DNA of 64,000 nucleotides. It comes from Escherichia coli. GTDB taxonomy: Bacteria; Pseudomonadota; Gammaproteobacteria; Enterobacterales; Enterobacteriaceae. The position numbers were made by a program, and so were the translations under genes. The stretch lies in the NCBI RefSeq assembly GCF_003790525.1, contig NZ_CP033635.1; one strand, given 5' to 3'. Positions 1 through 53,930 of the stretch are shown piece by piece. Positions within the stretch are counted from its first letter, which is position 1. Each line of letters starts with the position of its first letter. The notes under the pieces were generated by a model. It was not told the origin of the DNA and made no database searches. It worked only from the letters and a program-made list of their open reading frames with translations.

Positions 1-335
1 CTGTATATAGCGCCGCACAAGGGTTATTAGCCGCGCTGGCAGGGGCAAAATATGTTGCTCCGTATGTTAACCGCGTCGACGCCCAGGGCGGTGACGGCAT
101 TCGTACGGTTCAGGAGCTGCAAGCGCTGTTGGAAATGCACGCGCCAGAAAGCATGGTGCTGGCAGCCAGCTTTAAAACGCCGCGTCAGGCGCTGGACTGT
201 TTACTGGCAGGATGTGAATCCATCACCCTGCCCTTAGATGTAGCGCAACAAATGCTCAACACCCCTGCGGTAGAGTCAGCTATAGAGAAGTTCGAACACG
301 ACTGGAATGCCGCATTTGGCACTACTCATCTCTAA
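1..335 (+). CDS. fsaB: Fructose-6-phosphate aldolase 2, C-terminal part (5' end outside window; first full codon at 3)
   Basis: Frame-3 translation open from the window start and ending ...[16 protein letters not shown]; position upstream of gldA as in K-12. Confidence 0.8.
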
Positions 336-5873: not shown

Positions 5874-6767
<894 letters not shown>

Positions 6768-6804
6768 TTACCTCATCAATCGCTTGTAGTTATATGTTGT
6801 GTTG

Positions 6805-6840
6805 TGAACATCTATCCATTTAGACGTCCAGATGTAAAGA
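6805..6840 (-). promoter_or_regulatory. metF operator region with MetJ met-box-like repeats
   Basis: tagacgtccagatgt contains adjacent 8-mers resembling the AGACGTCT met box, upstream of metF. Confidence 0.45.
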
Positions 6841-7145
6841 TGAAGGAAAAGCCGAGGGGCGTCAACCGAAAAATGACCAATGATGGTGAGGAAAAATCAG
6901 GGAAGTTGAAAAAAACTCATCTTAATTAGAGGCGATAAAAGATTTCTCTATAGCGCAATCCACCTCGCACGTTTTGACTGATATTCTGACAACACAGCGA
7001 CACCTGGGCTTATTCGAAAAACAACGTCCTGCCACCGGATGGTGATGCTAAGGCATCTGATTCGGCCTGCGCCCTCGCGTAGGCCGAATACTGGATCTGC
7101 AAAATCAACTGGTAACAAACAGATGAATCAACTCAATACGTACTT

Positions 7146-8705
7146 TTACTTGATATCTTTCACGCGCATACCGTTGATCTGTTCATCCGTGATGGTGTTA
7201 CCCGCTTTGAAGTAATCAACCACGGCGTGATAAACGTAATAACCGCCCGTTGTGTTACGCGCTTTCCCTTCGGTAAAGGCGGTAAAACCATCTCCACCAT
7301 CAGCAAGGAAACTCTGAGTAGCAATGTGGTAAATCGTCGCATCTTCAATGGGTTTGCCATTCAGAGTCAGCGTGATTACCCGCTGACCAACCGGCTTACT
7401 GCTGTCGTACTTCATTTCCAGGCCTTTCGATACCTGTAAAACGCCATTACTCAAACTTGCGCCGTGTTCCATCAAACTGCGTAATTGTTTACCCGTGAGA
7501 TCCATCGTCACCAGTTCGTTGGGGAACGGGAAGGTACTGATGACGCCACCCATCGTAATTGCACCCGCCGGGATCTCATTGCGAATCCCGCCAGAGTTGG
7601 TTAACGCCAACTGGGTATTTTTACCCGCCGCTGCCAGCAAAGCGTCTGCCGCCAGGTTCCCGAGAGAAGCTGATTCACCATAGGCACGTTTTAGTTCAAC
7701 CGGCGATTGCGCCACCGTTTGTTGCACGACTTCATCCAGCTTTTTGTTCCAACTATCAATCACCTGTTTCGTTTGCGGATCGGGCTTCCACTCATCGGCG
7801 TAAAGGGTTTTAAGCTCGAAGTTTTTCACCGTAAAAGTGTGCGGCTTCTCTTTGTAGTCGAGAACCAGTTTACCGACATCAATCCCGCCGCTGTCAGTGG
7901 AGAGGATTAACGTATTGCCGACTTTAATCGGTTCCGGCGTACCCACATGTGCATGCCCGGTGATCAAAATATCCAACCCTTTCACCTGACTTGCCGTCTG
8001 AATATCTTTATCCAGTGCGCGACGCACATCCGTGCCTCCCATACTGGACTGGCGGGCCGGAACACCTTCGTGGATCAGGGCGACGGTTAGATCAACCTTG
8101 CCTTTGAGTTCATCGATATAACGTTGTAGCCATTTAATTTCATCACGCGCCTCAATACCCACTCGCGTTGCCGCAGATACCGTATCATTAAAGGCAAATA
8201 CACCGTGCAAACCAATCACGCCAATTTTCACGCCGTCTTTTTCAATGATGGTATAGGGCTTATCCCAGAATGATTTACTGCTGTTCTGATAAAAAACATT
8301 ACCCTGCACAATCGGGAATTTTGCCTGACTCAACTGTAATAACGTATTGTCCCAGCCGTGATCAAATTCATGATTACCTATAGTGACCGCATCGAATGGC
8401 ATGGTATTCATAATATCGATAATCGCCTTGCCTTTAGTCAGGCTGCTGATATACGGTCCGGTAAAATAGTCACCCGCATCAAAAAACCAGGTCGCTTTGT
8501 TTTTAGCTTTTTCTTGTTTAACAAGCGTAGTGATATTTGCCCAGCCGCCAATATCCCGTTTACCGTCAGCAATCCACGGCACTTTATAAGGCTCTACATG
8601 TGCATGGAGGTCGTTGGTATAAATGATGGTGACATCTTTGGCGCAAGCCCAAAACGGCAGTGTTAATGCGATACCCGCAGCAAGCATTTTAATTTTCATA
8701 AACAA
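7146..8705 (-). CDS. Secreted bifunctional metallophosphatase/5'-nucleotidase (UshA/YfkN family) paralog A
   Basis: Signal peptide then [33 protein letters not shown] metallophosphatase motifs and a C-terminal 5'-nucleotidase substrate-binding region. Confidence 0.85.
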
Positions 8706-8831
8706 TCCCTTCCAGTGAGATAAAGGATTGCTACATTACGTTCTGAAAGGCTTTTTTATGTGAGAATACTCACATCCAGAGGCGATAACTGTAGGACAAA
8801 ATCAACGACCTTATGAAATCGTTGGTGATAT

Positions 8832-9959
8832 ATGTCAAATCTGTTTGCGATTAATGTCTGTAAAACGTTCGGTTGTCGAAATTTGGGATTGGCCTCATCG
8901 GAAGATTACAGTTGGCCAGACTATAAACTGGGTTTTCCGGCACTGCACTGCCAGGCATGCGGAAGTTACCCCCCTTTGTTTGATGAACAACAATTTCGTG
9001 ACTGGTTGTCAGTTCACATGACTGCGTGTGCCATAGAAACAGGGCATTTTTGTCCATCATGCTATTGTAAAGAAAAGATTTTTTATGGCCACAACCCGCA
9101 GGGAACACAACGCGTTCAATGCCGTTCATGCAAAAAAGTCTGGACTCCGAAACAGCAGCCAGCAAGAGAAATTACGTATCCCCAGTCCATTGAAACCGTT
9201 CAACTGTTCATGCCCTTTCAAGGAGCCAGCGCAGTACAAAAGCTCTATGTTTTAGTCAGTCTTGACGCCACTCGTGGCAACATCCTTCATCTCTCCACGA
9301 ATTATACGCAACATCAGACAGGAGACAGTCTGCGGTACAGTTACAGAGGCAATACAGAACCAACTGAGCACCATAGCGATATTGTGCAGAGGGTAGATAT
9401 GCGTGAAGCGCAATTCTTGCGCCGGAGCCAGTTCGATGAAATTCAGTATGGCAGTGCTGTGCTCAAGCGCAACGGCAAGGGAGCCATACTACGCCCGGTT
9501 ATCACGGCACACGGGCATTTCAGAATACTGAAAATCCGCTTTCCACATGTCAAAACGCATATCATTTCACACGAATGTTTTCTGAGAGGCGCAATTATTA
9601 CAGCCTGGGCAGATCAGTTCCGCCAACAACAAGGCGAACTTTGGTTCGTAGAAGAAGAAATCAGCGACCGTAACGCTGATATTCCCTGGCATTTTCAGGG
9701 AACGACATACCATGGTTGGTGGCAAAATCAGTGGCAACGCTGGGGGCAGGGGAATAACAGCAAGATGGTCTGCCTGCTCACAGGAGTCTCCTTAGAAAGG
9801 GGCGCAAATGTTTCTCTGGCAACCAGTCGTTGCTTTATCACATGGCTGACAGACCAACACGACTTTACCCAAAGCGCGTTATTATCCGCAGGTCGCGTAA
9901 CGAAAATGCTGACCTCACTGGCGTTAAAATACAATGAATCGCTCACTCCATCTTGTTAG
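8832..9959 (+). CDS. Hypothetical Cys-rich protein with putative N-terminal zinc-ribbon
   Basis: 375-aa ORF; N-terminus has paired CxxC motifs (CQAC, CPSC, CRSC); no family confidently recognised. Confidence 0.55.
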   Translation: MSNLFAINVCKTFGCRNLGLASSEDYSWPDYKLGFPALHCQACGSYPPLFDEQQFRDWLSVHMTACAIETGHFCPSCYCKEKIFYGHNPQGTQRVQCRSCKKVWTPKQQPAREITYPQSIETVQLFMPFQGASAVQKLYVLVSLDATRGNILHLSTNYTQHQTGDSLRYSYRGNTEPTEHHSDIVQRVDMREAQFLRRSQFDEIQYGSAVLKRNGKGAILRPVITAHGHFRILKIRFPHVKTHIISHECFLRGAIITAWADQFRQQQGELWFVEEEISDRNADIPWHFQGTTYHGWWQNQWQRWGQGNNSKMVCLLTGVSLERGANVSLATSRCFITWLTDQHDFTQSALLSAGRVTKMLTSLALKYNESLTPSC

Positions 9960-10188
9960 TCAATACACTCGACAAACGACCATAAATTAATGGGATCACT
10001 ATTTCTCATTTAATTAAATATATGAATATATGACTGAAAAATATAATCACAGTCAATGTTTAATTAATAACATTATTTGTTACCAAGATCACATAATACT
10101 TTCCTGACCTATGCTTACATAAAAATAAGACACGGTGTTCCTTTTATTTAAATAATTCAACCAATGTAACAACCCCTATCAAGGAGGG

Positions 10189-11741
10189 ATGATGAGAACT
10201 GTATTTACGACTTTATCAGTCATATTCAGCGTGATGTTTTCTCACAGTATACTAGCTCAGGACGTTACTATTTATTATACGAATGATATTCACGCACATG
10301 TCAATCCGGCAAAAATTCCCGCTGTTGATAAGAACAGACTTGTAGGTGGTATGGCTAATATTGCAGGCATCGTTAATGAAGCGAAGAAAAAAAACAAAGA
10401 TGTCTTTTTCTTTGATGCAGGCGACTATTTTACCGGTCCGTATATCAGTACCCTGACCAAAGGTGAAGCTATTATTGATATCATGAACACCATGCCCTTT
10501 GATGCGGTGTCCGTTGGTAATCACGAGTTCGATCACGGCGTGCCCAATATGGTATCTCAGTTATCAAAAGCAAAATTCCCCATTCTGCTGGGAAATATTT
10601 ACTACACCGATACAAATAAACCAGTTTGGGATCATCCGTGGACCATTATCGAAAAAGATGGTTTAAAGATTGGTGTGATTGGATTGCATGGTGCATTCGC
10701 TTTCTATGATACAGTCGCGGCAAAAGCACGTGAAGGCGTAGAAGCCAGAGACGAAATTAAATATTTAAATAAAGCACTTGCAGAATTAAAAGGTAAAGTC
10801 GACATTACCGTTTTGCTAATTCACGAAGGTGTTCCGGCGCGTCAATCAAGCTTTGGTAGTAAAGATGTGGAGCGGCTACTACAGGCAGATATTGAGACAG
10901 CTAAAAAAGTGAATGGTGTTGATGTCTTAATTACCGGTCACGCACATGTCGGAACACCGCAACCAATAAAAGTTAATAACACATTAATTGTATCTACCGA
11001 TGCATACGGCACCGACATCGGAAAACTTGTGCTTGATTACAATCCGAAAACAAAGAAAATTGATAGTTATAATGGTGAGTTAATCACCATCTTTGCAGAT
11101 CAATTTAAACCTGACACCATCGTTAAAATACTATCGATAAATGGAGCGTAAAGCTTAACAAAATAACACAGGAAGTTGTCGGCCATTCTCCCGTAGTTTT
11201 AACACGTGAGTATGGCAGTTCTTCTTCTACCGGTAATCTTATTCTGGATGCAATGATGGAAAAAACACCTGATGCCATTGCCGGATTTCAAAATAGCGGT
11301 GGGATGCGAGCTGATTTTCCTAAAGGTGATATCACACTGGGAGATGTTATTAGCACATTCCCCTTTAATAATGACCTCATCGAGATGGATTTGACGGGCC
11401 GCGATCTCAAATCGTTGATGACGCATGCAACCAATCTAACTAACGGTGTGTTACAGGTTTCAAAAAGCGTTGCGGTTGTCTATGACAGCAAAAAACCACT
11501 CAACCAACGGTTAATCTCTTTCACCATTAACGGCAAACCCGTGGAAGATAATCAAACATATCGTATTGCCACGCACTCCTTTTGTGCCAGTGGTGGTGAC
11601 GGTTTTGAAGCATTTTTGAATGGAAAAAATGTGAAGACGATACCGGGAACAACCTCGGCGGAATCTATCATCGATTATTTCAAAAATCATAAACCTGTCA
11701 CCCCAGACTTAACTAAACGAGTCATGGACGTCGCCAAATAA
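10189..11741 (+). pseudogene. 5'-nucleotidase paralog B, split by a frameshift
   Basis: Metallophosphatase domain ORF 10189..11151 and 5'-nucleotidase C-domain ORF 11253..11741; the C-domain frame stays open back to ~11127 and aligns with paralog A (IDKWSVKL vs IDSWNKKL), so a 1-nt indel near the A-tract at 11121-11130 is implied. Confidence 0.65.
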
Positions 11742-11775
11742 AATATCATTTATCAGTCTATATATTTAACAAGGA

Positions 11776-13401
11776 ATGCGAATGAAAACAGTGCAGCGTA
11801 CTTTACTTGCCGCAACATTGCTGACTATTTTTTCGGTCTCAGTCATGGCGCAGGATGTCACGATTATTTATACAAATGATCTTCACGCTCATGTGGATTC
11901 TTATAAAGTGCCGTATATCGCAGACGGAAAACGCGACATTGGCGGCTTTGCCAATATATCTACTTTAGTAAAACAGGAGAAAGCGAAAAATAAAGCCACC
12001 TTTTATTTTGATGCTGGAGACTATTTCACCGGCCCTTATATCAGCAGTCTGACAAAGGGCGAAGCAATAATTGACATTATGAATACCATGCCTTTTGACG
12101 CAGTATCAATCGGTAATCATGAGTTTGACCATGGCTGGGATAATGCCCTGCGACAATTAAGCAAAGCGAATTTTCCTGTTTTATTGGGCAATGTTTATCA
12201 TAAAGAGAGTGAGAACCCCTTCTGGAACAAGCCCTACACCATCCTGGAAAAAGATGGCATCAAGATTGGTATTATTGGGCTACACGGCGTATTTGCATTT
12301 AATGATACGGTCTCGGAGCTCTCTCTCCAGGGACTCGATAATGACAATAATAACCGCTTTGATAAATCTTCCGAGACCCTTAAGAATCAGGGGATTGAAG
12401 CACGTGATGAAGTGAAGTATTTGCAGCATTATATCGACGAGTTACGTGATAAGGTTGACCTCACTGTGGCGCTGGTTCATGAAGGCGTTCCGGCGCGTCA
12501 GTCCAGCATTGGCAATACAGATGTTAGACGCGCTCTTGATAAAGATATTCAAACCGCTAGCAAGGTGAAAGGATTGGATATTCTGATTACCGGGCATGCC
12601 CACGTCGGAACGCCAGAACCAATCAAAGTCGGCAACACCTTAATCCTTTCAACTGATAGTGGAGGTATCGATATTGGTAAATTAGTCCTTGATGTCAACC
12701 CTACAGCTCGTACCCATAAAATGAAGAGCTTTGAGCTGAAAACAGTTTATGCCGATGAATGGATACCCGATCCAACGACACAAAAAGTTATCAATGGCTG
12801 GAATAAAAAACTGGCGGATATTGTACGCCAACCAGTGGGTGAATCATCGATTGCATTAACTCGCGCCTATGGTGAGTCATCGCAACTAGGCAACCTGTTT
12901 ACCGATGCAATGCTTGTCGCTGCTCCGACTGCACAGATTGCATTGATAAACTCCGGCAGCTTACGTGCGGATATAAATGCAGGCACGATTACCTTTGGCG
13001 ACATTACCAGTACATTCCCCTTCAAGAATGAACTTACTGAAATGGATCTCAGCGGTAAGGATCTGCGTAACCTACTGGAACACGGGGCATCGCTTACCAA
13101 TGGCATCCTGCAAATGTCAAAAGGCGCAGAAATGCGCTATACCCCGCAGAAACCAGTAGGTCAGCGCATAGTATCTTTTAAAATTAATGGTGAAGAGATC
13201 GTTGATACGAATATTTACCATGTTGCAACAACGACTTTCCTTGCACTGGGGGGCGATGGTTTTCTGGCATTCAAAGAAGGGAAAAATGTTCAGGTCCGCG
13301 CCGGAAATAACATGTCCGATGTCGTGATCGATTATTTGAAGAAAGGCCACAAGATTACGCCTGCACAGGTAAATGAAATGCGGGTGGACGTTAGCAAATA
13401 A
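11776..13401 (+). CDS. Secreted bifunctional metallophosphatase/5'-nucleotidase (UshA/YfkN family) paralog C
   Basis: Signal peptide, same motif set as paralog A, with an extra D/N-rich insertion (DNDNNNRFDKSSETLKNQG). Confidence 0.85.
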   Translation: MRMKTVQRTLLAATLLTIFSVSVMAQDVTIIYTNDLHAHVDSYKVPYIADGKRDIGGFANISTLVKQEKAKNKATFYFDAGDYFTGPYISSLTKGEAIIDIMNTMPFDAVSIGNHEFDHGWDNALRQLSKANFPVLLGNVYHKESENPFWNKPYTILEKDGIKIGIIGLHGVFAFNDTVSELSLQGLDNDNNNRFDKSSETLKNQGIEARDEVKYLQHYIDELRDKVDLTVALVHEGVPARQSSIGNTDVRRALDKDIQTASKVKGLDILITGHAHVGTPEPIKVGNTLILSTDSGGIDIGKLVLDVNPTARTHKMKSFELKTVYADEWIPDPTTQKVINGWNKKLADIVRQPVGESSIALTRAYGESSQLGNLFTDAMLVAAPTAQIALINSGSLRADINAGTITFGDITSTFPFKNELTEMDLSGKDLRNLLEHGASLTNGILQMSKGAEMRYTPQKPVGQRIVSFKINGEEIVDTNIYHVATTTFLALGGDGFLAFKEGKNVQVRAGNNMSDVVIDYLKKGHKITPAQVNEMRVDVSK

Positions 13402-13409
13402 TAAAAAAA

Positions 13410-13442
13410 TTATAATGCCATTCATTCACTGAATGGCATTAT
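13410..13442 (+). terminator. Hairpin terminator after nucleotidase paralog C
   Basis: Inverted repeat aatgccattca ... tgaatggcatt followed by a T-rich run. Confidence 0.5.
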
Positions 13443-13478
13443 TTTCTCTAAATCAACAATAGATAATGAGATATATTT

Positions 13479-14339
13479 ATGTGTATAAAAAAGCACGGGA
13501 TAGCTTTATCGATTCTATTAATACCTTGCATTGGAAACGCTCAGGAAATTAAAAGTGAGGAAGGCTGGTTACATCAAAGCTTGAATGTCATTGGTCGCAC
13601 AGACTCTCGCTTTGGCCCAAGGCTGACTAACGACCTCTACCCTGAATATACTGTAGCAGGAAGAAAAGACTGGTTTGATTTTTATGGTTATGTTGATCTA
13701 CCAAAATTCTTTGGCGTCGGCAGTCACTATGATGTTGGGATCTGGGATGAGGGCTCACCACTATTTACGGAAATAGAACCTCGGTTTTCCATTGACAAAT
13801 TGACCGGATTAAATCTTGCGTTCGGCCCTTTTAAAGAATGGTTCATTGCAAACAACTATGTCTATGATATGGGTGACAACCAGTCATCCCGGCAAAGTAC
13901 ATGGTATATGGGGCTTGGTACAGATATCGACACGGGTCTACCAATTAAGCTTTCTGCCAATATATACGCCAAGTATCAGTGGCAAAACTATGGTGCCGCT
14001 AATGAAAATGAATGGGACGGATATCGATTCAAAATAAAATATAGCATTCCTCTTACCCATTTATTCGGAGGGCGATTGGTATACAATAGTTTTACTAACT
14101 TTGATTTTGGCTCCGATCTTGCGGACAAATCACACAATAATAAACGAACCAGTAATGCTATTGCTTCAAGCCATATCCTTTCCCTGCTATATGAACACTG
14201 GAAATTTGCATTTACACTACGTTATTTTCACAACGGTGGACAATGGAATGCTGGGGAGAAAGTTAACTTCGGAGATGGTCCATTTGAATTAAAAAACACA
14301 GGATGGGGAACCTATACTACTATTGGTTATCAATTTTAA
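13479..14339 (+). CDS. Tsx-family nucleoside-specific outer-membrane channel paralog
   Basis: Signal peptide; [64 protein letters not shown] blocks match E. coli Tsx as I recall it; C-terminal aromatic residue. Confidence 0.85.
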
Positions 14340-14519
14340 ATCAGGTGATGTTTTAGATATTTTTACTTAATGCCATTTTGTAATTGTCATAAATAACTTC
14401 ACCATTCACACTGTGAATTCATCGCTCAACACAAAAGCCCCCTTATTACCGGGGCACTGACCAAAGGCAAAATGACAATCAATCACCACCTCCGCAGGAG
14501 GTGGTTTAGAGGTGACAAC

Positions 14520-14543
14520 AAAAGCTGGCAACTGCCAGCTTTT
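14520..14543. terminator. Bidirectional hairpin at the metL 3' end
   Basis: aaaagctggcaactgccagctttt palindrome directly downstream of the metL stop. Confidence 0.55.
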
Positions 14544-27901: not shown

Positions 27902-28588
27902 ATGGACGTATTCATGCAAAATATTATTCTTTTATTTATATATTTATTACTTATAGTCGTTAACCATTTCCGCTACAAATTCCTTTTGTCTGGCAACACG
28001 GGTGAAATGATTTTATATTTTGCTAACGTATTTTTTAACCCACTTGCCTTATCATTTATTATCGCCACAATCATCTGTATAACGATAAAAAAAAGAAGCA
28101 GCCACAGCTTTATTCGCGGCACTTGTTGGTTAATGGGATTATTTCTTATCTATAGCAGCTATACAGTGTGGGAACGACACAGCACATGGGATTATACTTT
28201 CCCGGGGCCAGGTATCACCGTCACAGTTCCGAGCAAACAGTGGGTTGCCAATATAGTAAAACAAGGACCAATCCTGGTGACTCGGGATGCCCATGCTATT
28301 TTAGTTATTGTTGCCTTCTCACAAAATGAACTCGGTGTGCATTCAATCGAGGAACTTACCGCGACTCAAAACGGAACTGCAGAAATGCATGTTTGTGATG
28401 TTAAGGGATTTGCCTGCGCTTATCAGGAAGGAATTCAAACAATGAGTGATGGCAAAATAAGACATGCTATTTTCATGACTCTACTGGATAACACTAATTT
28501 GATACGACTGGTCGCAGCTATCGACCCAGATTATTTGGACGAATATCAAGAAGAAGTAATGAAAATGATACTTTCTGCCCATCAATAA
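27902..28588 (+). CDS. Hypothetical membrane-anchored protein, tandem paralog 1 (AT-rich islet)
   Basis: 228 aa; N-terminal hydrophobic helices then a soluble domain; shares LLSGxxG, IKKxxxxSFxRGxCW, WxYTF..ITVTxP, HVCxxKxFxCxYQ blocks with the next ORF. Confidence 0.6.
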   Translation: MDVFMQNIILLFIYLLLIVVNHFRYKFLLSGNTGEMILYFANVFFNPLALSFIIATIICITIKKRSSHSFIRGTCWLMGLFLIYSSYTVWERHSTWDYTFPGPGITVTVPSKQWVANIVKQGPILVTRDAHAILVIVAFSQNELGVHSIEELTATQNGTAEMHVCDVKGFACAYQEGIQTMSDGKIRHAIFMTLLDNTNLIRLVAAIDPDYLDEYQEEVMKMILSAHQ

Positions 28589-28620
28589 TCTGATGTGCAT
28601 GTTAATAATAAGGGATTGAT

Positions 28621-29337
28621 ATGAGATACGTTATCTTATTAATACTATGGATAATAACTACTTTTCTTAGTCATCTTCAGCACAGCAACCTACTGTCTGG
28701 AGATCCTGGCATGGTTGGCGAGTATATCGGTTCAGTATTTCTGGGGCCGTTGTTACTTCCCGTGCTTGTGTCAGGTATTCTGTGCGCATTTATTAAAAAA
28801 ACACGTAACTTCGCCAGTTTTACTCGCGGGTGCTGTTGGGTATTGGGAATCCTGCTTTTATCCAAAGTCGGCAATACGTTTCGTATGTTTACCCCGTGGC
28901 AATATACCTTTGAGAATGCTGCGATAACCGTGACTATCCCGAACCGACACTGGAATACGGTTTCCATTAGTACTAATGAAACCATTGATATAAGAAGTGA
29001 GGATAATAGCGTCTTCATTTCTGCTTTCCGCCTGCCCGCAGGACGTAGCGCCGATGACCCGCTGGAAGCGTTAAAGAAGAAGCAGCGAGACAATCTCAAG
29101 GATCAATACAATGAGGAAGCCTTCCAGTTTCATGTTTGTAATGCCAAACATTTCACCTGTAAGTATCAGGATGTGTTGATAAATTTTGATGGTCAGCAGA
29201 AAAGAACCATCAGTGTTTATCTTGAAGACACCCCCAGGGCTGTGGGGATCATTGCATTAATGGCGCCAGATACGGCAGATAAATATCGCCAACAGGCGAT
29301 GGAGATTATGCTTTCCGCTAAAAATGCAGTGAAGTAA
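28621..29337 (+). CDS. Hypothetical membrane-anchored protein, tandem paralog 2 (AT-rich islet)
   Basis: 238 aa; same architecture and motif blocks as paralog 1. Confidence 0.6.
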   Translation: MRYVILLILWIITTFLSHLQHSNLLSGDPGMVGEYIGSVFLGPLLLPVLVSGILCAFIKKTRNFASFTRGCCWVLGILLLSKVGNTFRMFTPWQYTFENAAITVTIPNRHWNTVSISTNETIDIRSEDNSVFISAFRLPAGRSADDPLEALKKKQRDNLKDQYNEEAFQFHVCNAKHFTCKYQDVLINFDGQQKRTISVYLEDTPRAVGIIALMAPDTADKYRQQAMEIMLSAKNAVK

Positions 29338-29366
29338 AAAATAAGGCGCCTTGCGGCGCCTCTGCA
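29338..29366. terminator. Bidirectional terminator shared by paralog 2 and zapB
   Basis: aaaaaataaggcgccttgcggcgcct: GC palindrome flanked by an A/T run. Confidence 0.6.
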
Positions 29367-29375
29367 TGGAAGAGA

Positions 29376-29669
<294 letters not shown>

Positions 29670-29924
29670 TTACCGGTGACGCCTTAATAAATACGAGCGC
29701 ACTTTAGTTAGCTCCGATTGTATGAAGCCGCGCCATCGCTGTCCAGCGGCACGCCTTGCAGATTACGGTTTGCCACACTTTTCATCCTTCTCCTGGTGAC
29801 ATAATCCACATCAATCGAAAATGTTAATAAATTTGTTGCGCGAATGATCTAACAAACATGCATCATGTACAATCAGATGGAATAAATGGCGCGATAACGC
29901 TCATTTTATGACGAAGCACACACA

Positions 29925-29970
29925 TTTTAAGTTCGATATTTCTCGTTTTTGCTCGTTAACGATAAGTTTA
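29925..29970 (+). promoter_or_regulatory. glpFKX promoter region with GlpR operator-like dyads
   Basis: aagttcgatatttctcg and tgctcgttaacgataag partial palindromes upstream of glpF. Confidence 0.4.
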
Positions 29971-30045
29971 CAGCATGCCTACAAGCATCGTGGAGGTCCG
30001 TGACTTTCACGCATACAACAAACATTAACTCTTCAGGATCCGATT

Positions 30046-49945: not shown

Positions 49946-50041
49946 CCGTTTAACTCCGTGGTTAATGGGTGCAACTATTTTCTGTTGGGCAGTGCATGAG
50001 ACGCTATTTGACCTGGCTGGTCAGTGGATGAAACAACAGAT

Positions 50042-50072
50042 AAAGAAAAGGCAGGCAATTCGCCCGCCTGTC
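50042..50072 (-). terminator. Putative terminator downstream of the G/FI cargo gene
   Basis: Minus strand caggcgggcgaattgcctgcc followed by ttttctttatc. Confidence 0.45.
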
Positions 50073-50264
50073 CTGATTTGTACTCACTCATTTTCCGACT
50101 GACAATTTACATAGCCAAAACGCTATCAAATCTGACAGTCTGCTTTGAGCGAGGAGCAGAGGTTAGTTTTAGTTAACCAAAATGATAAAAAGCAGTAGAA
50201 AAATCCGCTCATTACGTTATGGTTATAAGCCGCACATAATCATCCGAGCCAAATCCTCTTGATT

Positions 50265-51164
50265 TCAAAGAATTAGCACTTGCTCTTCACTAGAAACTAT
50301 GGTTCTGACTTCACGCTCAAATATTGGATCCATTATCATTTTTCTATTTGTTGGAATAGTAAATTTACCGAGTACCATGACAATGCTACTCAACGGAAAT
50401 AATTTTGGAGTAACATTTCCTAATTGAATCGTAGGATATATATTAAAGCCCCCTTTTATCCTCATTGGCGAACCTTCAATGAAGTGTCGATAATTAAATT
50501 TCGCCATAGGGATTCTCGCCACATGCACTTTCATAATTACAGCAACCTGAGCTATTTTTACTTTCTGGAGGTAAGTTGACAATCGTTCTAACTGCGTTGT
50601 TTCATAGAAAAAATCAGACCACGTTACAGTACTTGTTCCAGTAACAATTTTTATGCTGTTTCTCTTGTTGGGGTGAGCTTTTCCATATTCATAGATCTCC
50701 CGTAAGCTATCCATGTTCTTCACATAAGGGGCTTTCCGACCTCTCTTGACATAAACGCGGTCTGTAGTATCAGAAGGTGGATTTGCCTGCATAGCTGCAG
50801 CTTTTCTGCTTAATTTAGAGATATCATCTTCATCGAGTATATGTATACGGAATATATTATTACCTGTGGCAAGCGCACGGCTGATATCATGACTGGAATC
50901 ACTTGCATAAATTGTATTCAATCCTGAAGTTCCATACTGGCATAATTTGTCATGCGTGAAATTTTTTTCCAGTCTAAAGAAGGCGGGGATATGCAAGGTT
51001 TTATTAAAACTCCGACGAATATGGCTTTTGACATACACCAAATGAGCAGAGCAATTTGGGTCAGGACATTTGAGTGGATAGGGATTAACACTATAATTAA
51101 AAGTATTTACATTTACTAAAATCTGATTGTTATCAATAGCCTGAGTTATACGAATACCACTCAT
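50265..51164 (-). CDS. AT-rich cargo (moron) protein at the P2 Z/fun position between G and FI; candidate phage-exclusion protein
   Basis: 299-aa ORF with markedly lower GC than flanking tail genes; occupies the slot where P2 carries the T5-exclusion gene Z/fun; no family recognised. Confidence 0.6.
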   Translation of the reverse strand: MSGIRITQAIDNNQILVNVNTFNYSVNPYPLKCPDPNCSAHLVYVKSHIRRSFNKTLHIPAFFRLEKNFTHDKLCQYGTSGLNTIYASDSSHDISRALATGNNIFRIHILDEDDISKLSRKAAAMQANPPSDTTDRVYVKRGRKAPYVKNMDSLREIYEYGKAHPNKRNSIKIVTGTSTVTWSDFFYETTQLERLSTYLQKVKIAQVAVIMKVHVARIPMAKFNYRHFIEGSPMRIKGGFNIYPTIQLGNVTPKLFPLSSIVMVLGKFTIPTNRKMIMDPIFEREVRTIVSSEEQVLIL

Positions 51165-51379
51165 TACTCCTCCATAAAGATAGGCGCAAGCATTTAGTAA
51201 TAAACCATTAACATGCCGAGATCATACCCGATCATTGAAATGTAAACACTCCCCTAAGACGGCTGCTGGCATAATATTTTATGACATCAGCAATGCCCAC
51301 CTCTGGCACAGAGTGGACTGTCAGATTAGGCTTTACTCTGTGCCATAGATATGTAAGCCCACACTAGAGCTCATACAAC

Positions 51380-51907
51380 TTATTGCGGCATTTCCGGCCA
51401 TTCAGGATTTGCAGGATCCACACGACTGACCAGAACACTATAGCGTTCCCATGCCTCCAGTCGACTACGCTCCTCATCTGTTGCCATATTCAGCCTGACC
51501 GCGCGCTCCAGCGGCAAAATCACGGATTCAGCTTCGGAAAGCAAAGCTGCCTTATGTAATTCCGCCAGTTTCTGCTGTTCGTCTGCCGTATAAATCCGCT
51601 TAATCACGGCACCATCCTTAAACATCCATTTACCTGAGTCGTCAGCACGTCGGTTGGAGGTAATATCAGGAACCTCAACAACGCTAAAACCTTCAGGATT
51701 AAGCGTTGAAGCATCTCTGGTGATAGCGACAATAATATTATTTTCATCGTAAACAATCTTTATTGTGTCTGGCTGAAAGTTCTTCACTTCCTCATACCAG
51801 TTTTTTCCGTCCTCAGAGTAAAGCCAGATAACTCCGTGTTTCTTTGTTAACTCATACTGTTCCAGTGTTTTAGCGTTACCCGCTTTTATGTTCTTTAAGT
51901 GCATCAT
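51380..51907 (-). CDS. G: Tail fiber assembly protein (gpG)
   Basis: 175 aa immediately downstream of the tail fiber gene. Confidence 0.85.
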
Positions 51908-51908
51908 A

Positions 51909-53930
51909 TTAAACGCTCGCTACATTATACCAGGTGCCATTTATATACTTTTGAACGGGTCTGTAATAAACGCCCGCTATATTATCGGCAGAGTTGGACC
52001 CTGTATCCTGAACATTAATACCAGACAATACATGACCTGACGGGCACTGGAAATTCCATGTTTGCCAGTTGTTCACTCCATAATATTGCTGTGACCCAAG
52101 TCGAACATCTTTCACATATCTGGAATCAAAATTGCCATAGTTGCCAGGAATAACTTGCGAGCCACAAAGCCAGTTACCGTTATTATCCATGTACGCCTGA
52201 CCATCGGTGCCATTGGCTGTCCTTGAGTTATTAATCATGTAGATGCCAAATTGCTTGTTCCCCAGTCCACCTATCATGAACTTGCGGTCAGCGTGATTCT
52301 GGCGAAGCAACGCCTGAGCGCTATCAGTGTTAACTATATTTTTCCCAAAGATAGCGTTGTTATCGCGCATCTGAATCCACATACCATTACTGCTGTTAAT
52401 AGCAAAACGGTCTGAAAGCGTCTCCCCTGAAACATTAAGGCCACGCCCCATCGAAACAGCGCCAGTAGCGTTATTAATCCATAATGGCCTTAATCCGTTA
52501 TAAGTCCCCATGTTGTCACCGGAGTTTGTCAACATGAAGTATGTATTTGAACCATCATTACGAATAAAGAATCCGTAATTACCATAAGCAATACGTAGGC
52601 CGTTTGCTGATTTTGATATGACTTCGCCATTTACAATGGCATTGACAAGAACATACAAAGCATCCCATTTAAGATTCATCAGGTCTTTTGTTGTAGTACT
52701 CTGGCGGCTTCTCCATTTGAAATATTCATTGCCGTTATCCCCCGTTTCAAACCACATGAATGAATCAGTGTCACCATCGGCATCATTTTTAAATCCAATC
52801 TTCGCCCAGTCAGTATTTCGAATCCAGGCAAGGATTGAGTCGTTTTCAAAAGTAAGTCCACCGGACAAGGTATCGCCATTTTTTTGCACGGCGTTCCCGG
52901 CTCGGTTTACCGTTTCCTGTAAACCGAGATATTCGATAACGGCGGCAACGGTCGATTTAGCCAGAATATCCCGCCCGACTTTTGTCAGGGTTGCCAAGCT
53001 GGCAACATCATTCCCAATAAAATACGGAAACCTGTCTGCCGCAGTAGCAAGCCCCGCCAGTGCCGTCAGGGTGGCATCTTTCGGTTGCTTACCCGCAAGC
53101 GCATTAGTCATGGTGGTAGCAAAATTCGGGTCATTGCCCAGCGCCGCCGCCAGCTCGTTCAGCGTATTCAGTGCGTCAGGCGACGAGTCTACAAGGGCGG
53201 CAATCGCGGCCATAACGAAAGCCGTGTTTGCGATCTGAGTATTATTCGTTCCCTGTCGCGCAGTTGGCGTCGTTGGCGTTCCGGTCAGTGCAGGGCTGTT
53301 TAATGGCGCTTTCTTGTTCGTTTCATCCATTACCGTCTTAACGGCTTTCGGCGTTGCAGCCAGTGTTTCAGACGTGCTGTTGGTCGCACTGCTTAACTGA
53401 GTAAAACCTTTTGCGGTCAGCGAGGCGTCAGGGTGACGTCGTGACTGTTCATGTTCTGCAATTTTGTCATCAACGTAATCCTGCGTCGCCATCACCGTTG
53501 TGGTGTCGATGGTCAGATCCACTGAGGCTACACTGCTGACGATAATGACCATGCGGCAGGTCTGCGAACGTCCTGAGCCTTCGGCAAGGGCTGGCTTATA
53601 ACTTTCGGCCATGTTCGCCACGGCAATTAACGTTCCCGCATCATCGTACAGGCCAAGCTCACGCATCCAGAAACCGCCCACCTCCGGCGGAATAACCAGC
53701 TCTGCGATAATATAATTACTGTTTCGTTTGTCCTGGCTGATTTTGTTCAGCGCATGTCGCCAGACTTCGTGGATAAGCCCGGTCTGTCCGGCATCCGGGA
53801 CAGGCAATTTACCACCGCCATCCCCGACGGCCATCGTGGTAATGTTGACCTTCCGCCCTCCCGGCGCGGTTGCCGCTGCCAGCTTTGCTGCACCGGCAGT
53901 GGTGATAACGGTTTTGAATTTTGTGCTCAT
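51909..53930 (-). CDS. H: Tail fiber protein (gpH)
   Basis: 673 aa; N-terminus [41 protein letters not shown]... Confidence 0.9.

Follow-up and report, generated by a model that had tools for sequence, protein, structure and literature searches.

The stretch of DNA analyzed here, 64,000 nucleotides of Escherichia coli from contig NZ_CP033635.1 of assembly GCF_003790525.1 (hereafter the window), carries an accessory island in the spacer between metF and metL, and the last gene of this island, designated tsx2, encodes a paralog of the outer-membrane channel Tsx. In K-12 the metF-metL spacer is 348 bp long. The G+C content of the island is approximately 39-46%, compared with 50-56% in the flanks, and its genes are ordered nuc1 (minus strand), hyp375 (plus strand), nuc2, nuc3 and tsx2 (plus strand). 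In a comparison with E. coli SMS-3-5 (NC_010498.1), the 6.6 kb around tsx2 (positions 8000-14600) showed 100% identity, and over its first ~22.6 kb the window agreed base for base with the exception of one missing base at 11125.

Database searches placed the product of tsx2 in the Tsx family over nearly its whole length. It matched NCBIfam PRK15106 with 491.8 bits (curated cutoff 311) over profile positions 6-289 of 289, and Pfam PF03502 (Channel_Tsx) with 236 bits (5.6e-70) over model positions 4-244 of 244, while the sole match among PDB sequences was E. coli Tsx (1TLW/1TLY/1TLZ, E=1.4e-114). An AlphaFold2 (AF2) model based on 49 homologs had 12 strands, a mean predicted local distance difference test score (pLDDT) of 87.3 and a predicted template-modeling score (pTM) of 0.82. 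When this model was searched with Foldseek, the top structures were 1TLW_A and 1TLW_B (template-modeling score, TM, 0.92 when normalized to the target; root-mean-square deviation 1.9-2.1 Å; 61% identity), and the next-best structure had a TM below 0.5. The fold predicted for Tsx2 is a monomeric 12-stranded beta-barrel like that of PDB 1TLY. The N-terminus, as read from the sequence, has a basic n-region, a 13-residue hydrophobic core and small residues at -3 and -1 (residues 1-23 had pLDDT values <50 in the model), and the C-terminus ends in ...TTIGYQF. The protein appears in this way to carry what an outer-membrane protein needs for export and assembly, with a Sec signal peptide at the N-terminus and an aromatic beta-signal at the C-terminus.

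The ratio of nonsynonymous to synonymous substitution rates (dN/dS) between tsx2 and its ortholog in Citrobacter enshiensis was 0.05 (dS ~1.6). Because of this low value, tsx2 is judged to be under strong purifying selection, which counts against a dead gene. Each of the two main Tsx2 protein alleles was found on at least 1000 contigs, and both NCBI and UniRef name them Tsx.

The SMS-3-5 genome also contains an intact canonical tsx at the yajD-tsx locus, the product of which is 100% identical to K-12 Tsx. The identity between Tsx2 and K-12 Tsx is 60% for the full-length proteins and 65% for the mature parts, and the two share long identical blocks, for example of 17 and 26 residues. Like K-12 Tsx (b0411; PDB 1TLY/1TLW/1TLZ), Tsx2 belongs to the same Pfam and NCBIfam family, starts with a Sec signal peptide and ends in Phe; in contrast to it, Tsx2 has an unrelated signal peptide and is encoded in the metF-metL island rather than at yajD-tsx-yajI. 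The closest characterized protein is Salmonella Typhimurium Tsx (P0A261; ~67% identity), which differs in being a canonical ortholog at the tsx locus with no nucleotidase linkage. By its location, and by its position in a separate clade of the neighbor-joining (NJ) tree, tsx2 falls outside the ortholog group of canonical tsx (yajD-tsx-yajI). A recent duplication of tsx was considered and rejected on account of the identity of just 60-65%, the separate clade and the low G+C content; by these features tsx2 is an old paralog of tsx. The original prediction had called this open reading frame (ORF) a second Tsx-family channel with long blocks conserved with E. coli Tsx and a linkage to nucleotidases, and the family matches, the alignment, the canonical copy and the three metallophosphatase/5'-nucleotidase genes upstream (Table 1) bear out each of these statements.

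Some further features of Tsx genes in E. coli were observed. In the neighborhood of canonical tsx in SMS-3-5 (locus L009, 14550-19008), a ParD/ParE toxin-antitoxin pair lies between secF and yajD, and the yajI-like DUF3251 gene beside tsx is interrupted by an IS200/IS605 element with a TnpB gene. A third divergent type of E. coli Tsx (P0117, 285 residues) is 55% identical to Tsx2. A few genomes in the search of 5426 complete E. coli genomes described below had three Tsx-like places, and one place was plasmid-borne.

Table 1. Features of the metF-metL island in the window (nucleotide positions unless marked aa).
Feature	Position	Strand	Remarks
Whole accessory island	6765..14555		7.8 kb (7791 bp); fills the metF-metL spacer
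nuc1, periplasmic 5'-nucleotidase paralog	7146..8699	-	transcribed divergently
Perfect CRP consensus, TGTGAGAATACTCACA	8759..8774		center of the 132-bp divergent nuc1/hyp375 region
hyp375, conserved 'cytoplasmic protein' with InsA-like Zn ribbon	8832..9959	+	Cys-rich
CRP-like site, TGTTACCAAGATCACA	10078..10093		one mismatch; upstream of nuc2, in a conserved block of ~45 bp
nuc2, 5'-nucleotidase paralog	10189..11741	+	two ORFs in the window (10189-11151, 11253-11741)
nuc3, periplasmic metallophosphatase/5'-nucleotidase paralog	11776..13401	+	541 aa; RefSeq start 2 codons later
Hairpin with 13-bp stem, then U-rich tract, in the nuc3/tsx2 gap	13412..13442	+	probable intrinsic terminator or attenuator
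tsx2, Tsx-family outer-membrane channel paralog	13479..14339, including stop codon	+	intact; ATG start; 286 aa
Predicted Sec signal peptide of Tsx2	13479..13541	+	21 residues; putative cleavage after GNA, before QE
Predicted loops L1 to L6 of Tsx2	aa 44-49, 74-95, 131-138, 171-177, 211-226, 252-274		from AF2 topology
Predicted surface loop L5	14109..14156	+	aa 211-226, equivalent to Tsx ~192-212; 5-residue deletion within 198-207
Predicted surface loop L6	14232..14300	+	aa 252-274; N249 kept (N263), N252 to D266, N254 to P268

The proteins encoded by nuc1, nuc2 and nuc3 are 57-68% identical to one another, and all three have signal peptides. They contain Metallophos and 5_nucleotid_C domains with the metallophosphatase motifs DxH, GD, GNHE and GHxH intact, and every match to an NCBIfam equivalog was far under its cutoff (for example UshA, 155 bits against 600). 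The window lacks one C after 11124 (CGTTAAAATAC, compared with CGTTCAAAATAC in NC_010498.1), which results in a frameshift in nuc2; in RefSeq NC_010498.1 the gene encodes one intact protein of 516 residues. For hyp375, searches of Pfam, NCBIfam and PHROGs gave nothing beyond a marginal match to an InsA/IS1-type Zn ribbon at residues 74-105, and PDB gave no match. Homologs with 62-89% identity occur in Escherichia, Citrobacter, Enterobacter, Klebsiella, Pluralibacter and Kluyvera, and hyp375 adjoined nucleotidase genes at every locus examined (the full and short islands of E. coli, C. enshiensis, C. freundii and E. hormaechei). Possibly it acts as the regulator of the module, or it is a domesticated transposase.

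Surface loops, transport residues and the paralog clade

The topology of Tsx2 was assigned from the strands of the AF2 model and the usual rule for outer-membrane proteins that both termini are periplasmic. This orientation is supported by two papers, of which one calls the segment with F27, G28 and R32 a loop exposed at the surface and the other puts the binding sites for T6, Ox1 and H3 in the last two loops. The identity between Tsx2 and K-12 Tsx was 11% in the signal peptide and N-terminal segment (residues 1-28), 55% in the loops, 68% in the strands and 72% in the turns, and the differences were modestly enriched in the predicted surface loops (Fisher p=0.04). The original prediction had placed the differences in the signal peptide and in several surface loops, and had proposed an alignment with Tsx and a mapping of the differences; carried out here on the AF2 topology, that mapping upheld the description, though in somewhat less ideal form, as loop L4 is 100% conserved between the two proteins and strands b1, b2 and b11 are divergent.

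Residues that matter for transport and residues that matter for phage binding behaved differently in this comparison. According to the account of Tsx mutants in PMC6499177, which cites Fsihi 1993 and Ye & van den Berg 2004, the substitutions F27L, G28R/E, S217R, G239D and G240D damage the transport of nucleosides or albicidin by Tsx. All five positions are identical in Tsx2 (F45, G46, S231, G253 and G254). The same account assigns the T6 receptor area of Tsx to residues 198-207, with N249K and N254K/Y also impairing receptor function, and R32P has been described as giving resistance to T6, U115 and albicidin. In Tsx2, the segment DSGNAINGIK (198-207) reads KSHN-----N, with five residues deleted together with the changes D198K, G200H and K207N, R32 is replaced by T, and N249 alone among the mapped T6 determinants is kept. 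Because the surface loops that make Tsx a T6 receptor differ in it, Tsx2 is probably not a T6 receptor; the core of the channel looks like that of Tsx, whereas the T6 docking surface does not.

Changes in these loops might have been the product of an arms race with phages, and this was considered and rejected: L5 and L6 showed no diversification among the E. coli alleles sampled, in which both are invariant, and the C. enshiensis ortholog has nearly the same L6. In the 5426 complete E. coli genomes, Tsx-like matches were found in 5423, the full island with an intact, full-length tsx2 was found in 658 (including ATCC 25922 and A0 34/86), and the matches occupied 6084 places in all. These counts imply that nearly all of the 658 carriers keep canonical tsx, as SMS-3-5 does. 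The proposal that the paralog may change susceptibility to Tsx-dependent phages and bacteriocins is not supported in the form in which it was made, since tsx2 alone cannot remove sensitivity to T6 or colicin K while canonical tsx persists; at most, tsx2 would add a new receptor, or permit the loss of tsx while a channel is kept.

In the NJ tree, the Tsx proteins linked to this gene module, together with P0004, were set apart from canonical Tsx with a bootstrap value of 70% (200 replicates), and Tsx2 grouped with its C. enshiensis ortholog at 100%. Members of the clade have replaced residues that are 88-100% conserved among 43 canonical Tsx proteins, namely L37P, E40T/R, V232T, A233L and V267T, and further changes at conserved positions are H228K/S/N and F170S/A/V. 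From strand alternation and hydrophobicity, that is, from sequence periodicity and not from coordinates, E40, F42, F170, I184, H228, V232 and probably V267 were placed facing the lumen within the barrel's periplasmic half. At these seven positions Tsx2 has T, A, S, N, K, T and T, which are small, polar residues, and these replacements of near-invariant residues hint at a modified pore. An adaptation of the pore to anions through overall charge was also considered and found no support, as the mature net charge (-4 for E. coli Tsx2, -8 for its C. enshiensis ortholog) is no outlier from the family range of -7.4 +/- 3.0 and is inconsistent between the two orthologs.

Distribution, recurrence and regulation of the module

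Besides the genomes with the full island, approximately 1186 further genomes, for example of sequence type 131 (ST131), had a short form that consists of nuc1 and hyp375 alone, the DNA of which is just ~84-85% identical to the SMS-3-5 island. In the ST131 strain MB1159 (locus L007, 6833-7963 and 7927-10359), hyp375 overlaps the 3' end of the convergent metL by 37 nt. Because hyp375 runs 37 nt into metL, a deletion that took nuc2, nuc3, tsx2 and the spacer is suggested for the MB1159 lineage.

The island has been described before. It is region GR31 (metL..metF, 7791 bp) of the avian pathogenic E. coli strain BEN2908, published in 2026 (PMC12928451), with the same 861-bp Tsx gene and three UshA-domain genes, and it was complete in all strains compared there, including UTI89/RS218 and LF82/NRG857c (extraintestinal pathogenic and adherent-invasive E. 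coli). The SMS-3-5 island differs from this B2 version as a divergent allele with ~95% DNA identity. That paper proposes coordinated nucleoside processing and transport for GR31; it is descriptive, and receptor loops, regulation and the module in other genera are not discussed in it. A literature search for functional studies of tsx2 or the island, run under their names and under presumed CFT073 locus tags, yielded just this paper. The gene tsx2 is already annotated and has been described before, as an accessory paralog in a well-known family, and what is new here is the recurrence of the module in C. freundii and E. hormaechei, the conserved CRP-like sites and the residue losses in the paralog clade.

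In C. enshiensis the same island is present at the same site, with a Tsx2 ortholog that is 85% identical; an extra gene of 327 residues with no Pfam match, which is absent in E. coli, lies there between tsx2 and metL (locus L005, 11292-12275). In Citrobacter freundii and Enterobacter hormaechei, Tsx paralogs of 293 residues (P0087 and P0077) that are 58-60% identical to Tsx2 were found at another chromosomal site, adjoining 2-3 nucleotidase genes and a divergent hyp375 homolog (67% identical). These paralogs share with Tsx2 the module, the changes L37P, V232T, A233L and V267T and the loss of E40; they differ from it in chromosomal site, in gene order and in the residue at the E40 position, which is R in the paralogs and T in Tsx2. 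Because the set of Tsx, nucleotidase and Zn-ribbon genes recurs at a different site in these two species, it is judged from gene order to be a recurrent module and not a chance neighborhood. The next-closest relative of Tsx2, P0004 (68% identical; locus L006, 6364-8849), has no nucleotidase linkage; its gene adjoins sprT and a gene for a periplasmic Endonuclease-I, which is another association with the breakdown of nucleic acids.

Control by cAMP-CRP is known for tsx and other genes of nucleoside catabolism. The TGTGA-N6-TCACA sequence between nuc1 and hyp375 is the only site with zero mismatches in the window, against an expectation of ~0.06 for 64 kb. In the B2, ST131 and C. enshiensis versions the half-sites do not change while the spacer varies, and C. 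freundii and E. hormaechei have CRP-like sites with one mismatch in the homologous position. When up to two mismatches were allowed, 32 sites were found in the window against 28 expected, which is not significant, and all of the weight for CRP lies with the perfect site and its conservation across genera. Because this site is conserved across alleles and genera, control of the island by cAMP-CRP would be a reasonable inference. The block of ~45 bp upstream of nuc2 (10050-10095; TCAATGTTTAATTAATAACATTATTTGTTACNAAGATCACA) is conserved in the B2 allele and near-invariant between E. coli and C. enshiensis while the rest of the spacer has diverged, and beside its CRP-like site there is an AATGTT...AACATT inverted repeat, a putative feature that could be an operator. 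Partial read-through of the hairpin in the nuc3/tsx2 gap by transcripts from the nuc2 promoter probably accounts for the expression of tsx2, which is perhaps weak in SMS-3-5. No CytR-like motif was seen when the intergenic sequences were inspected by eye, a check that was not a systematic scan, and Rfam gave no match to a structured RNA at E<=1 in window positions 7000-15000.

Function of Tsx2 and competing explanations

The finding of tsx2 is real but ordinary. We consider it probable, at roughly two chances in three (0.68), that Tsx2 is a functional nucleoside channel in a catabolite-controlled module for the scavenging of nucleosides and nucleotides. The analysis established family membership, the predicted fold, intactness, purifying selection, conserved linkage and the conserved CRP-like sites, while expression, localization, substrate, CRP dependence and the division of labor are inferred. 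According to the proposed mechanism, tsx2 would belong to a gene module that has spread horizontally, and would supply its outer-membrane part; the remainder would be 2-3 Sec-exported 5'-nucleotidase paralogs of the UshA/YfkN type and the Zn-ribbon cytoplasmic protein, which is maybe a regulator. The module would probably be switched on via cAMP-CRP when preferred carbon sources are absent. Periplasmic nucleotides would then be dephosphorylated by the nucleotidases of the module, Tsx2 would add high-affinity entry of nucleosides through the outer membrane, and the core NupC/NupG permeases would carry the nucleosides into the cell. A role for Tsx2 in nucleoside uptake is plausible because the five transport positions are conserved and because the nucleotidase linkage recurs in other genera, and this functional guess agrees with the independent proposal in PMC12928451.

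If this simple reading is true, the island would be one more accessory nutrient-scavenging locus of the B2 and F lineages of E. coli, and it would matter for gut or extraintestinal fitness on the products of nucleic-acid breakdown. Tsx is the route by which albicidin, colicin K, T6-like phages and the CdiA toxins that bind Tsx take effect, and if tsx is lost under such pressure, a second channel with different loops could leave the way open for nucleosides or antibiotics. Phages that have yet to be described could also use Tsx2 as a receptor. What is known of Tsx at present does not explain why a Tsx paralog is repeatedly coupled to several periplasmic nucleotidases.

Several observations weigh against the nucleoside-channel reading. 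Periplasmic nucleotidases need no nucleoside channel upstream of them, so that the simple model leaves the coupling unexplained, and the near-invariant, predicted pore-lining residues that are replaced in the paralog clade mean that the substrate could differ. In SMS-3-5, a stable hairpin and U-tract lie 36 nt upstream of the tsx2 start codon, no convincing separate promoter was found for tsx2, and its Shine-Dalgarno sequence (GAG) is weak, so that the expression of tsx2 in this strain may be low. In addition, RefSeq/PGAP flags the SMS-3-5 gene (NC_010498.1, 4471240-4472085, equivalent to window 13479-14324) as a pseudogene, 'incomplete; missing C-terminus'.

The first of these points keeps alive an explanation in which the substrate is altered. 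The pore of Tsx2 would have been re-tuned to carry nucleoside monophosphates, dinucleotides or nucleotide derivatives, and would serve as a dedicated entry gate for the co-encoded nucleotidases. This would explain why the Tsx paralog is constantly linked to 2-3 periplasmic nucleotidases, and it is consistent with the small, polar residues that the clade has at predicted lumen-side positions in place of residues conserved at 88-100%. However, all five known transport positions are conserved, the net charge of Tsx2 is within the family range with no consistent anion-friendly shift, and the assignment of residues to lumen or lipid comes from sequence periodicity and not from coordinates. We regard the re-tuned pore as unlikely, though it is the strongest of the alternatives. 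A wider proposal is doubtful as a whole: that Tsx2 and its Citrobacter and Enterobacter relatives are a distinct Tsx subfamily in which the periplasmic half of the pore was remodeled to admit phosphorylated or modified nucleosides, and which would serve both CRP-controlled nucleotide scavenging and as a T6-insensitive spare channel.

We hold it very unlikely that in this strain tsx2 is silent or in decay, a passenger of the island from which no working protein is made. The RefSeq label, the terminator-like hairpin just upstream, the weak ribosome-binding site, the frameshift of the neighboring nuc2 in the window and the loss of nuc2, nuc3 and tsx2 in ST131 and ~1186 other genomes would all agree with such a remnant. 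Pseudogene status was nevertheless rejected, as the ORF reaches a normal stop codon, from which the RefSeq end falls 15 nt short, and an identical protein (WP_000334959.1) is called intact elsewhere. Because this same protein is annotated as intact in strain DETEC-S792, the RefSeq flag is probably an annotation artefact. The dN/dS of 0.05, the C-terminal beta-signal and the presence of all conserved family residues also speak against decay. The hairpin (-16.4 kcal/mol in SMS-3-5, z -6.8 in the RNA fold) is also present in C. enshiensis at -16, where the stem differs on both arms (GCC/GGC against GTC/GAC), and it is weakened to -5.3 in the common B2 allele. 

The main selective value of tsx2 could also lie at the cell surface. 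Tsx2 would then be either a substitute receptor or a spare channel to which receptor-binding agents are blind, so that cells attacked by T6-like phages, by colicin K or by CdiA toxins that target Tsx could dispense with canonical tsx and still take up nucleosides. The alteration of all mapped T6 determinants but N249, with the transport residues kept, would agree with this. We nevertheless give it hardly any credence: SMS-3-5 retains canonical tsx, as essentially all carriers seem to do from the counts, no sign of diversifying selection is seen in L5 and L6, which are conserved as described above, and the strictness of the nucleotidase linkage in different genera speaks for a metabolic role.

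Elsewhere in the window, positions 28001-30000 (43% G+C) and 50001-52000 (41%) are low compared with the ~50-58% around them, and may be further accessory segments.

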